Below, in pieces: positions 48,969-52,179 of a stretch of DNA of 64,000 nt; position 1 is the stretch's first letter; every line of letters begins with the position of its first letter. The stretch comes from an uncultured Thermus sp. Lineage in GTDB: Bacteria > Deinococcota > Deinococci > Deinococcales > Thermaceae. The notes under the pieces were generated by a model. The model saw nothing but the letters and a program-made list of their open reading frames with translations. It was not told the DNA's origin and searched no databases. A program made the translations under genes and the position numbers. Location: the NCBI GenBank assembly GCA_947085095.1, contig CAMTVD010000014.1, positions 32,001-96,000 of the forward strand, in the 5' to 3' direction.

Positions 48969-49026
48969 GGTAGCCCATGGGAAGGGGGAAACCCCTGGGC
49001 GGGCTACGTTCCCGCCCGCAGGCGGT

Positions 49027-49944
49027 TCAGCTGGCTTTCCCGGGGAGGCGGATGGGGGGGAGGGCGGCCTCTATGGCCGGGCGCTTCCCCTCAAGCCAAG
49101 GGGGAAGGACGAGGCGCTCCCCCAGGTCCTCTGGGTCCTCGTCCACGGCGAAGCCGGGCCCGTCCGTGGCCAGCTCTAAGAGCATCCCCCCGGGTTCCAG
49201 GAAGTAAACGGAACGGAACCAGAAGCGGTCTATGAGGGGGGTGGGCCGTAGCCCCCGGGCCAAAACCCTTTCCCGGAGGGTGAGGGCGTGGGCCTCGTCC
49301 CGCACCCGGAAGGCCAGGTGGTGGACCCCTCCCACCCCCAAGGCCCCCCGGCGCCCTTCGGGGAGGGCCTGGACCTCCAGGAAAGATCCCCCCTGCTCTA
49401 GGACAGAGCCTTTCCCCTGGCGGTAGCCCAGGACCTCTTGGAAGAAGGCCAGGGTCGGCCCCACCTCCCGCTCCAGGATCCGGGCCCCCAGAAGGCCCCG
49501 CACCTGGTGCTCTGGGGGGACGGGGCTGTCCTCCCAAGGGAGGCCCGGGCCCTGGGCGGCCGCTAGGGCCAGGGGCAGGCCGTGGGGGTCGGGGAAGAGG
49601 AGGGCGGGAAAGCCAAAGCGCTCCCCCTTTGCCAGGGGCCTGCCGTAGCGGGCCAGGCGGGCTTCCCAGAAGCCGAGGCTTTCTTGGGGCACGGCCAGGG
49701 CTACCTCCACCGCCTGCCCCACCCCAAAGCGGTTGGGGGGGAGGTGGGGCCAGGAGAAGAAGGTGAGGGCGGTGCCCGGGGTGCCCAGCTGGTCGGCGTA
49801 GAAGAAGTGGTAGGCGGTGGGGTCGTCCTGGTTCACGCTCCGCTTGACCAGGCGCAGACCCAACACCCCCAGGTAGAAGTCCAGGTTCTCCTGAGGGTCG
49901 CCGGCCACGCAGGTGATGTGGTGGAGCCCGAGGACGCCCTCCAT
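49027..49944 (-). CDS. Ring-cleaving dioxygenase / glyoxalase (VOC, MhqO-like)
   Basis: [33 protein letters not shown] and ELATDGPGF. Confidence 0.92.
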
Positions 49945-50035
49945 GGGGCCATGGTACGCCCCCAGGGGTGCGGCGAATGTGAGGGCGAAGAAAAGCCCCG
50001 TCGCGATCCAGGCCTTAGCCCGGTATACTCACGGT

Positions 50036-50425
50036 GTGGACCCCAAAGACCTCGAGGCCCTGGCCCGGGTTTTCGCCCGCTTTCCCCAGGTCCAGGCCGC
50101 CTTCCTCTTTGGCTCCCGGGCCCGGGGGGAGGCTGGGCCTCGTAGCGATTGGGATTTCGCCCTTCTCCTAGACCCTCCGGAGCCTGATCCCCGGCCGGAG
50201 ATCCTGGGCGCCCTGGTGGAGGCGGGCTACGAGCCCTTGGACCTCCTCCTTCTAAACGAGGCACCCCCTGCCCTGGCCCTGGAAGCGGCCCAGGGCCGCC
50301 TCCTGTACGCCCGGGAGGGCTTCAGCCTGGGGGAACACGTCTCCCGGCTGGCCCGGGAGGTCTGGGACCTGGAGCCCTTCTTCCGCCTTCAGCGGGAGGC
50401 CTTGAAGCGAAGGTGGTCCCCATGA
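50036..50425 (+). CDS. Minimal nucleotidyltransferase (MNT) antitoxin, MntA-like
   Basis: GS-x10-DxD motif LFGSRARGEAGPRSDWD. GTG lies 6 nt after TATACT. Confidence 0.88.
   Translation: MDPKDLEALARVFARFPQVQAAFLFGSRARGEAGPRSDWDFALLLDPPEPDPRPEILGALVEAGYEPLDLLLLNEAPPALALEAAQGRLLYAREGFSLGEHVSRLAREVWDLEPFFRLQREALKRRWSP
50048..50084 (+). repeat. 37-bp direct repeat, copy 1
   Basis: GACCTCGAGGCCCTGGCCCGGGTTTTCGCCCGCTTTC, identical to 50794-50830. Confidence 0.95.
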
Positions 50426-50859
50426 CCCGGCCGGAGGTGTTGCGCCGGAGGCTGGCCCGTCTCGAGGAATACCTCGGCATCCTGAGAAGGCTTTCCGCAT
50501 ATTCTCTGGAGGAGTTCCTGGCCAGTCCTGAGCGCTACGGGGCCACGGAGCGTTTTCTTCAGCTTTCCATTGAGGCCATCAACGACATGGCGGCCCATGT
50601 GGCCGCCGAAGAGGGGTGGGGTCCCTTTGAGCGGGCCCGGGACCTGGTGGACCTCTTCCTGGCCCAGGGCTTGCTGGAAGAGGAGCTGGCGAAGAAGTGG
50701 CGGCAGATGATCGGGTTCCGCAACCTCCTGGTGCACGACTACCTGGACGTGGACCGCAAGCTGGTCCACCGCTTCCTTCGGGAGGGCCTTCAGGACCTCG
50801 AGGCCCTGGCCCGGGTTTTCGCCCGCTTTCTCTTAACCTCCATCCCCATGATGTGGTAG
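50422..50859 (+). CDS. HEPN (DUF86/HepT-like) ribonuclease toxin
   Basis: Rx4H(x)Y motif FRNLLVHDY, ERFLQLSIE. ATGA coupling to the MNT gene. Confidence 0.9.
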   Translation: MTRPEVLRRRLARLEEYLGILRRLSAYSLEEFLASPERYGATERFLQLSIEAINDMAAHVAAEEGWGPFERARDLVDLFLAQGLLEEELAKKWRQMIGFRNLLVHDYLDVDRKLVHRFLREGLQDLEALARVFARFLLTSIPMMW

Positions 50860-51611
50860 CCCGCATCCACGTAGATGACCTCCCCGGTGATGCCGCTGGC
50901 TAGGGGGGATAGGAGGAAAAGCCCCAGGTTCCCCACCTCCTCCTGGGTGACGTTGCGCCCTAGGGGGGCCACCTGGGCCACCCGGTCGTACATCTTCATG
51001 AAGCCGGGGATGCTCCGGGCGGCCACGGTGCGCACCGGCCCCGCGGAGATGGCGTTCACCCGCACCCCCTTGGGGCCAAGCTCATAGGCCAGGTAGCGGA
51101 CGCTGGCCTCGAGGGCCGCCTTGGCGATGGCCATCACGTTGTACTTGGGCACCACCTTCTCGCTGGCGTAGTAGGTGAGGGTGACCATCCCACCCCCTTC
51201 CCGGAAGAGGGGCTCGGCCCGCTGGGCCACGGCCACCAGGGAGTAGGCGGAGACCTCCAGGGCCAGAAGCCAGTCCCCCCGCTTGGTGTCCACATACCGC
51301 CCCTCCATGGCCTCCCGGGGGGCGAAGGCGATGGCGTGCACCAGGTAGTCCAGGTGTCCCCAGGCCTCCTTGACCCCTAGGAAGAGGGCGTCCAGCTCCT
51401 CGTCCTTGGTGACGTCCGCCTGGAAGAGGAGGGCCCCGCCCAGGGCCTCGGCCAGCTTCTCCGCCTCAGGGCGGATCCTTTCCCCCTGGTAGCTTAGGGC
51501 CACCTCCGCCCCCGCCTCCTTGAGCTTCTCGGCGATGGCGAAGCCCAGGCTCCGCTGGTTGGTGACCCCCATGATGAGGGCCTTCTTGCCCGCAAGGTCC
51601 ACGCTGAGCAT
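50790..51611 (-). CDS. fabI: Enoyl-ACP reductase (NADH)
   Basis: GVTNQRSLG, SAYSL, YNVMAIAKAALE, NAISAGPVRT and ITGEVIYVDAG. Confidence 0.97.
   Translation of the reverse strand: MLSVDLAGKKALIMGVTNQRSLGFAIAEKLKEAGAEVALSYQGERIRPEAEKLAEALGGALLFQADVTKDEELDALFLGVKEAWGHLDYLVHAIAFAPREAMEGRYVDTKRGDWLLALEVSAYSLVAVAQRAEPLFREGGGMVTLTYYASEKVVPKYNVMAIAKAALEASVRYLAYELGPKGVRVNAISAGPVRTVAARSIPGFMKMYDRVAQVAPLGRNVTQEEVGNLGLFLLSPLASGITGEVIYVDAGYHIMGMEVKRKRAKTRARASRS
50794..50830 (+). repeat. 37-bp direct repeat, copy 2
   Basis: Identical to 50048-50084. Confidence 0.95.
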
Positions 51612-51684
51612 GGGGGGATTATACCCGGGCTAAGCACCCCGCCGTGGCCCTTGCCACGGCGGGGGCCCCTTAGAATGGGGCATC

Positions 51685-52179
51685 ATGGCGAACCTGGAAG
51701 CCTACGGGAGCAAAGAGGAGGTCTTGGCGCGCCTATTTCAAAGCCGCGAGGCCCTTTTGGCCCGCCTAAGGGAAGCGGAGGCCTCCTGGCTTGCCACCCC
51801 CCTCCGCCCCGGGGCCTGGACCCCCCTCATGGTGGCGGAGCACGTGGCCCTGGTGGAGGAGTCCACCGCCCGGGTCCTGAGGCGGCTCAGGCGGGTGGCC
51901 GCGGGGGAGAACCTTCCCCCCGTCCCCTTCGTCCCCGGGGAGTTCAAGGAGGGGAAGCCCCAGGCCCCCGAGCCCGTCCAGCCCAGGGGTGGGCTCTCCC
52001 TGGAGGAGGTCCTGGCCCTCTTGACGAAGGCCCGGGCCTTCCTGCTGGAGGAGGCCGAAAGGGCCGACCCCCACAACCCCGCCACCTTCCCCCATCCCTT
52101 CTTTGGCCCCCTCACCGCCCTGGGCTGGCTCCGGGCCGCCCTTTACCACGAGGAGCACCATTTAAAGGCCCTGGGCTAG
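51685..52179 (+). CDS. DinB/YfiT family protein
   Basis: WTP..VAEHV, HPFFGPLT and HEEHHL. Confidence 0.85.
   Translation: MANLEAYGSKEEVLARLFQSREALLARLREAEASWLATPLRPGAWTPLMVAEHVALVEESTARVLRRLRRVAAGENLPPVPFVPGEFKEGKPQAPEPVQPRGGLSLEEVLALLTKARAFLLEEAERADPHNPATFPHPFFGPLTALGWLRAALYHEEHHLKALG

Follow-up and report, generated by a model that had tools for sequence, protein, structure and literature searches.

The window analyzed here (the whole stretch of DNA, 64,000 nucleotides of the genome of an uncultured hot-spring Thermus sp., G000) contains a small toxin-antitoxin (TA) cassette located between a glyoxalase-family gene and fabI. A 37-bp sequence, R, is found in both genes of the cassette, as R1 in the first and R2 in the second. 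The features of the locus are the following:

49027-49944, minus strand: glyoxalase/VOC-family gene, the left neighbor (Pfam Glyoxalase, 1e-11)
50024-50029, plus strand: TATACT hexamer that may be the -10 box of a leaderless transcript, located 6 nt before the mntA GTG
50036-50425, plus strand: mntA, antitoxin (minimal nucleotidyltransferase), 129 aa, GTG start (Pfam, motif and PDB match)
50048-50084, plus strand: R1, codons of mntA helix α1, copy of the hepT 3' end (paralog comparison and model)
50422-50859, plus strand: hepT, HEPN RNase toxin, 145 aa as in the window (Pfam, motif and PDB matches)
50790-51611, minus strand: fabI (enoyl-ACP reductase), convergent with hepT, 273 aa as in the window (Pfam adh_short_C2, 1.3e-88)
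50794-50830, plus strand: R2, native hepT 3' end, C-terminal half of the last helix (paralog hepT ends)
50834, single base, no strand: T, with which neither hepT (TAA to TTA) nor fabI (TAG to AAG) retains its stop

The identification of the two genes as an MNT-HEPN module, made in a preliminary description of the sequence, is borne out by Pfam and PDB matches, by the motifs of both proteins and by the overlap of their genes. MntA matches the Pfam families Polbeta (PF18765, 3.5e-14) and NTP_transf_2 (PF01909, 4.9e-08) as well as the MNT antitoxin of Aphanizomenon flos-aquae (7AE2_B, 5.1e-08), and carries a GSX10DXD motif at residue 26 (GSRARGEAGPRSDWD). HepT matches the HepT-like family PF01934 over residues 14-131 with an E-value of 1.7e-30 (105.6 bits, against a cut-off of 23.5) and the HEPN toxins 7AE9_A (1.8e-10) and 5YEP_B (5.5e-08); its RX4HXY motif at residue 100, RNLLVHDY, is aligned with the same motif in 7AE9_A. 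The combination of GSX10DXD and RX4HXY is the signature of HepT/MntA pairs, in which MntA AMPylates the tyrosine of RX4HXY, as set out in the relevant passages of PMC7641770. The genes are co-oriented, with the antitoxin first, and overlap by ATGA at 50422-50425. Judged from sequence, the pair is a canonical chromosomal type VII MntA/HepT TA system, with MntA predicted to be a nucleotidyltransferase antitoxin that AMPylates HepT, and HepT predicted to be a HEPN RNase toxin. Within Thermus, a single clade has this cassette placed tail-to-tail with fabI.

The cassette shares its domains, gene order, overlap and motifs with SO_3166/SO_3165 of Shewanella oneidensis and with the A. flos-aquae HEPN/MNT pair (PDB 5YEP, 6M6U, 7AE2-7AE9), in contrast to the similarity of the Thermus proteins to the solved ones, which amounts to just 36-44 bits. 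AlphaFold models of both proteins were built on 19-sequence alignments. In the HepT model (pLDDT 93.8), R2 corresponds to the C-terminal half of the last helix (residues 112-134), while in the MntA model (pLDDT 93.6), R1 corresponds to helix α1 (residues 3-14). The MntA model also displays a long C-terminal helix (residues 98-127), a predicted feature in common with known HepT/MntA systems. Unlike in those systems, the codons of the N-terminal helix of the Thermus antitoxin are a DNA copy of the codons of the toxin C-terminal helix. Both genes are under purifying selection among intact alleles, with dN/dS values of 0.11-0.20 for mntA and 0.03-0.20 for hepT (dS ≤0.5).

A scan for the sigma-70 consensus revealed no full promoter upstream of mntA. 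The TATACT hexamer, conserved as TATACT or CATACT in the relatives G018 and G020 and in the metagenome contigs L115-L126, may act as a promoter element. The neighborhood further comprises ispG, a DinB_2 protein, a glutaredoxin and an AFG1-like ATPase in addition to the glyoxalase-family gene and fabI; these are housekeeping genes, and no recombinase gene lies within about 2.5 kb of the cassette.

R1 and R2 form an exact direct repeat with a period of 746 bp. Recounting in the window and in the genome confirmed this repeat as it had been described: the 37-mer (GACCTC...CGCTTTC) has no further copy in the window, and R1 and R2 are its sole copies in the whole 2.08-Mb genome (41 contigs). Two matches of the 37-mer occurred in 0 of 100 dinucleotide-preserving shuffles of the window, and a repeat search found the pair to be the sole exact long direct repeat within 49000-52000. 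Both copies start at codon phase 0 and encode DLEALARVFARF, which corresponds to MntA residues 5-16 (R1) and HepT residues 125-136 (R2). The palindrome CCTCGAGG that opens the repeat is over-abundant, as had been claimed, with 49 sites in the window against 5.3 expected and 11 in the largest shuffle; 50050, 50796 and 51107 are examples of its sites. Folds of R with its flanks were no better than those of shuffles (z 0.46, -0.50 and -0.39), and the search for terminators found one weak terminator-like hairpin against 0.9 expected. The preliminary description had also calculated the products of recombination between the copies, and its arithmetic is right: deletion gives a 25-codon open reading frame, and the reciprocal junction a 249-codon HepT-MntA fusion.

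The 25-aa length of the stub and the 145-aa length of HepT hinge on the T at 50834. One Logan contig from each of the runs X1, X2 and X4 (study P1; depths 629, 599 and 765) has an A at this position, as does the metagenome contig L123. With A, hepT encodes 137 aa and ends in ARFL-TAA (stop at 50833-50835), fabI encodes 259 aa (50832-51611) and ends in MGMEV-TAG, the two stops overlap and the stub has 17 aa; with T, HepT is extended by 8 aa and FabI by 14 aa. The gene ends of the A variant resemble the hepT ends of relatives and the fabI ends of other Thermus, and the T is either a rare variant or a consensus error. The commoner junction type, TCTAG-CTCC, is found in L004/L005 and in contigs L115, L116, L118-L121 and L124-L126. 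A 2-nt difference in this type costs fabI its usual stop, and the gene continues for 9 codons, antisense to the HepT helix codons, up to a stop within R (CTA of sites 13-15). Because the fabI stop TAG is formed there, this junction type always has A at site 15 of R.

Paralogous cassettes indicate which of the two copies is the original. A cassette of 73% identity is located downstream of fni in G017, G003, G031 and the megaplasmid of T. thermophilus JL-18; full copies of this cassette, linked to fni (type 2 IPP isomerase), are L033, L034, L035 and L130. The paralog hepT genes end in DLRALARVFARFL-stop or QDLEALGRVFARFL-stop, which differ from the 37 bases of R at 4-6 positions, and more distant HepT homologues end in D[LIF]xxLxxVFAxFL-stop. 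The paralog mntA genes begin with VEEEKRLGQILARF or VRAPEESLREVLARF and have only about 12 nt, at the ARF codons, in common with the hepT tail. Accordingly, the G000 peptide agrees with the paralog HepT tails in 11 of 12 residues, versus 4-6 of 12 for the paralog MntA heads. Because the paralogs have the sequence solely at the hepT end, R2 is the native hepT 3' end, and R1 is a copy that replaced the usual head of mntA. None of 26 other MntA/HepT pairs has a head that is a DNA copy of its tail, the best reaching 25 of 36 nt.

We then scanned metagenome contigs by an exact pattern of the repeat, degenerate at three sites, and obtained 12 contigs. Both copies are present in five of them (L115, L117, L118, L122 and L123), at a spacing of 746 bp in four and of 546 bp in L115, which has a 199-bp deletion within hepT and an untouched mntA. 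Two others, L120 and L125, contain the hepT-R2-fabI side alone; in L120, hepT is interrupted behind the codons for EEYLGIL by a relatively AT-rich insertion of 121 bp that may be a small mobile element. The cassettes are 88.9 (L117), 88.8 (L122), 92.0 (L118) and 94.6% (L123) identical to that of G000, and the truncated allele of L115 is 90.5% identical over 603 shared bases. The differences between R1 and R2 within an allele number 0 (in G000), 1, 2, 3 and 4; no difference is fixed, and both copies vary at sites 15 and 22. Exact identity, with no synonymous difference, might suggest a recent event. As alleles up to 11% diverged hold the same pair with 1-4 differences, the exact identity in G000 is no sign of a fresh event, and by these allele comparisons the repeat pair is old and shared, neither recent nor confined to G000.

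The preliminary description had also predicted an empty site with exactly one copy of the repeat, and such sites exist. Among the fabI loci of 29 relatives, two display the deletion product, G018 and the closest relative G020: between TATACT with GTG on one side and fabI on the other, they have three codons, one R that deviates at 2 positions, and TCTAG. Nothing resembling R is present in the remaining 27, in which fabI stops 2-4 residues past MGME. Four of the 12 metagenome contigs (L116, L121, L124 and L126) are empty with the same structure, while L119 begins inside the junction and its R context is unreadable. The cassette interior was not found elsewhere in G018 or G020. Every empty-site allele retains the TATACT/CATACT box. 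Comparison of the interval between the glyoxalase gene and fabI across Thermus, as had been proposed, thus revealed both filled and empty alleles, and they occur on two left flanks:

Left flank with the glyoxalase gene, GTGGACCCCAAA: filled in G000 and L123; empty in G020, L121 and L124
Left flank with ispG directly upstream, GTGGAGCCC: filled in L115, L117, L118 and L122; empty in G018, L116 and L126

The glyoxalase gene is itself variable between ispG and the cassette, being absent in G018, L115-L118, L122 and L126. G000 and G020 share 98% identity over 49000-50094, an interval that takes in the glyoxalase gene and the spacer downstream of it, but about 89-90% across the 16 kb around it, which suggests that this segment was exchanged recently.

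In a fabI tree of 24 rows (L126 was omitted as too short, and 10 of the 27 relatives without R were taken in), one clade with support of 99/97 and less than 1% divergence mixes filled (L118, L123 and L125), broken (L115 and L120) and empty alleles (L116, L124, G020 and L121). The empty alleles are not monophyletic, and there is little resolution inside this tight clade. Their distribution within it fits recurrent loss, and precise loss of the whole pair is probably recurrent in natural Thermus populations. The fni locus served as a control. Its cassette has no long repeat, head and tail being alike at just 19-23 of 36 nt, and two species, G021 and G014, have each lost it through a different imprecise deletion, after which 120-128 nt of the hepT 3' end remain. 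The remnants are L127 (G021:C7:8700-10900) and L128 (G014:C65:21900-24100). These ragged losses at a locus lacking the repeat support the notion that the long repeat makes loss at the fabI locus precise and repeatable.

Logan contigs from runs X1-X4 and X5 are made of 31-letter words and break at the 37-bp repeat, so that no word can span an empty site. The depths of the left flank, interior and right flank were 680/145/765 in run X4, with 50460-50779 uncovered, and 1182/575/629 in run X1, where the contig of the 37-nt repeat has a depth of 693 that matches neither reading; these values are unreliable but give a hint of empty alleles whose flanks are identical. Run X5 belongs to a different study and contains the cassette at 96% identity in a 760-nt contig, as well as a 118-nt contig that consists of just 16 letters of the left flank, R and the right flank, too few on that side to count as bridging the site.

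Starting from what was observed directly (the repeat, the gene identities, deletion alleles on two backgrounds, broken alleles and selection), we consider it rather likely that an old duplication inside the cassette now drives recurrent precise loss of a decaying, still selected TA cassette. In the ancestor of the locus, mntA would have received, in frame at its 5' end, a copy of the final 37 bp of helix codons of hepT in place of its own usual N-terminal helix codons, and the short prior similarity at the ARF codons probably seeded the copying. This may have proceeded through ectopic conversion or template switching at ARF, through tandem duplication followed by deletion, or through a circle entering a remnant. 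Recombination or slippage between R1 and R2 would then remove both genes at once and leave the promoter-like box, GTG, three codons, one R and the hepT stop. Intact, toxin-broken and precisely deleted alleles coexist, as would follow if R1 and R2 make the cassette prone to precise loss. This proneness is the effect that we ascribe to the repeat. The loss may be tolerated given that, by the mechanism outlined in those same passages of PMC7641770, HepT would be silenced by covalent modification and not through the binding of a labile antitoxin.

Deletion between short direct repeats, by RecA-dependent recombination or by replication slippage, is a general bacterial process. The Thermus locus resembles it in that the product keeps exactly one copy of the repeat and the same end points recur. 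Unlike in the usual case, the repeat lies inside both TA genes and in frame, toxin and antitoxin are lost together, and a 17-codon open reading frame is left behind the original start. TA cassettes are usually called hard to lose. Here, a natural population displays a route by which one may be shed, with an in-frame internal duplication allowing toxin and antitoxin to leave in one precise event. We regard this as a clear natural example of cassette shedding, not as a new kind of element: what is unusual is an in-frame terminal duplication on a canonical HepT/MntA pair, and the accepted view of how such systems work is unchanged. Searches of full-text literature found no description of a repeat-bracketed HepT/MntA cassette, or of its deletion, in Thermus. 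The locus also offers a case of protein evolution, where twelve residues of the last HEPN helix appear to serve as helix α1 of a nucleotidyltransferase, under purifying selection and in alleles 11% apart. Both aspects may be of use to studies of TA turnover and of Thermus population genomics.

The number and the direction of the events can be read in more than one way. Since resolution within the fabI clade is low and the empty alleles do not differ in R variant or in fabI junction type (TCTAG-CTCC throughout), the data leave room for a single deletion spread by recombination instead of several independent deletions. Deletion, rather than insertion, is the direction that we infer; a 746-bp circle integrated into a pre-existing stub would give the same alleles, which counts against regarding this direction as proven. 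The suggestion that the repeat is the scar of integration of a small circle stands to the same extent: it is compatible with the alleles, and nothing in them requires it. The polymorphic sites 15 and 22, shared by R1 and R2, could stem from ongoing exchange between the copies or from cycles of loss and regain, but a test of concerted evolution in five alleles found no significant difference between within-allele and between-allele distances (44 of 120 permutations).

A reversible mini-cassette, in which the 746-bp unit is excised as a circle and re-enters the promoter-bearing stub by homologous recombination, so that the TA pair is switched or moved, seems to us unlikely. It would account for the TATACT box, GTG and intact R in six of six empty alleles, for the in-frame HepT-MntA fusion of 249 aa on the circle, for polymorphisms common to R1 and R2 without fixed differences, and for filled and empty alleles on near-identical fabI backgrounds. 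However, the circle or tandem junction expected of an excisable or amplifiable cassette was not encountered. We read 21 instances of R (17 in the metagenome contigs, two in G000 and one each in G018 and G020), of which six had the context left flank-R-mntA, eight hepT-R-fabI and six that of an empty site, with one unreadable; the junction hepT-R-mntA occurred in 0 of the 20 readable contexts. R is present just twice in its own genome, and no copy of the cassette interior was found in the 60 other genomes searched. The search for HepT-first fusions returned two long proteins, P0001 and P0002, both MNT-first, which is weak evidence. Fused MNT-HEPN TA proteins, the subject of PMC13000451, likewise have both domains in one polypeptide. 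Known fusions are MNT-first, as opposed to the hypothetical Thermus junction product, which would be HepT-first.

The surroundings of the cassette argue against mobility as well. Homology of 37 bp is a poor substrate for integration. No recombinase gene lies nearby, R folds no better than shuffles and no circular junction was seen, so the locus lacks the marks of a site-specific mobile cassette. The first 35 bases of the degenerate repeat pattern had no exact counterpart in viral contigs. The 31 plasmid records with a match are all Thermus plasmids at 60-80% identity, and the sole full-length match among them is the fni-linked paralog on pTTJL1801; with regard to the same cassette at another site, the plasmid hits are paralogs of 73% identity or less. 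Integron gene cassettes, which include the TA cassettes of chromosomal integrons, are comparable in being small promoter-dependent units, present or absent at one site and circularizable in principle; the Thermus cassette differs from them in that R has no attC-like structure, no integrase is nearby and no circular junction was seen. We hold it to be slightly less probable again that R makes the cassette a minimal mobile unit that works without a recombinase, and that the TA pair is a reversible on/off switch at the level of the population. Were this so, the circle would encode the HepT-MntA fusion and re-enter a stub that keeps promoter and start codon, and many rounds of excision and re-entry would have left their mark in the polymorphisms common to R1 and R2. 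Thermus is polyploid and naturally competent.

The preliminary description had further suggested that the toxin tail mimics an antitoxin helix. Selection for the same peptide in both helices, for instance for binding to one groove, with the DNA identity as a by-product, is improbable in our view. Of 27 MntA/HepT pairs found, 17 were used; G000, L044 and L045 (near-copies of L042), L048 (head out of register) and six pairs with a different tail type (L059, L060 and L064-L067) were dropped. Across these 17 distant pairs, the two helices have the same consensus residue at 9 of 12 positions; some distant pairs are similar (L041, for example, with 8 of 12 aa), and the last HEPN helix of A. flos-aquae helps to dock the MNT C-terminal helix, according to the portion of PMC11586414 that deals with it. 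Against this, head-tail identity averaged 3.82 of 12 within pairs and 3.57 of 12 between pairs (p 0.17 for aa, 0.12 for nt). A column-wise scan of 16 pairs (L057 was lost by the pattern) placed the head-tail combination 14th of 17,280 window pairs, and its similarity of 3.34 of 12 was the fifth among distinct diagonals (top 3.79). Comparison of the MntA head with the HepT tail by hhalign gave no match, the best hit lying elsewhere with a probability of 0.3%. Mimicry or concerted evolution across the family was rejected, with partners no more alike than non-partners and head-tail only the fifth-best pairing. Furthermore, selection on the peptide leaves the identity at synonymous sites unexplained, and the closest paralogs carry different MntA heads.

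Finally, a fresh duplication or integration in G000 alone, or an assembly artefact, is scarcely credible: the 37 of 37 identity without a synonymous difference and the 41-contig, 93%-complete assembly would agree with it, but the pair is not an artefact of assembly because both copies recur, 746 bp apart, in four independent metagenome contigs (L117, L118, L122 and L123) whose cassettes are only 88.8-94.6% identical to that of G000, and the zero differences of G000 are the low end of a range that reaches 1-4 sites in other alleles.

On the far side of fabI, a stretch of about 40 bp at approximately 51629-51669, between the fabI start and the DinB_2 gene, recurs at 86-97% identity in G000 (C33, C4 and C14:225768), at three places in G020, and in G018 and G051, and looks like a short dispersed intergenic repeat.
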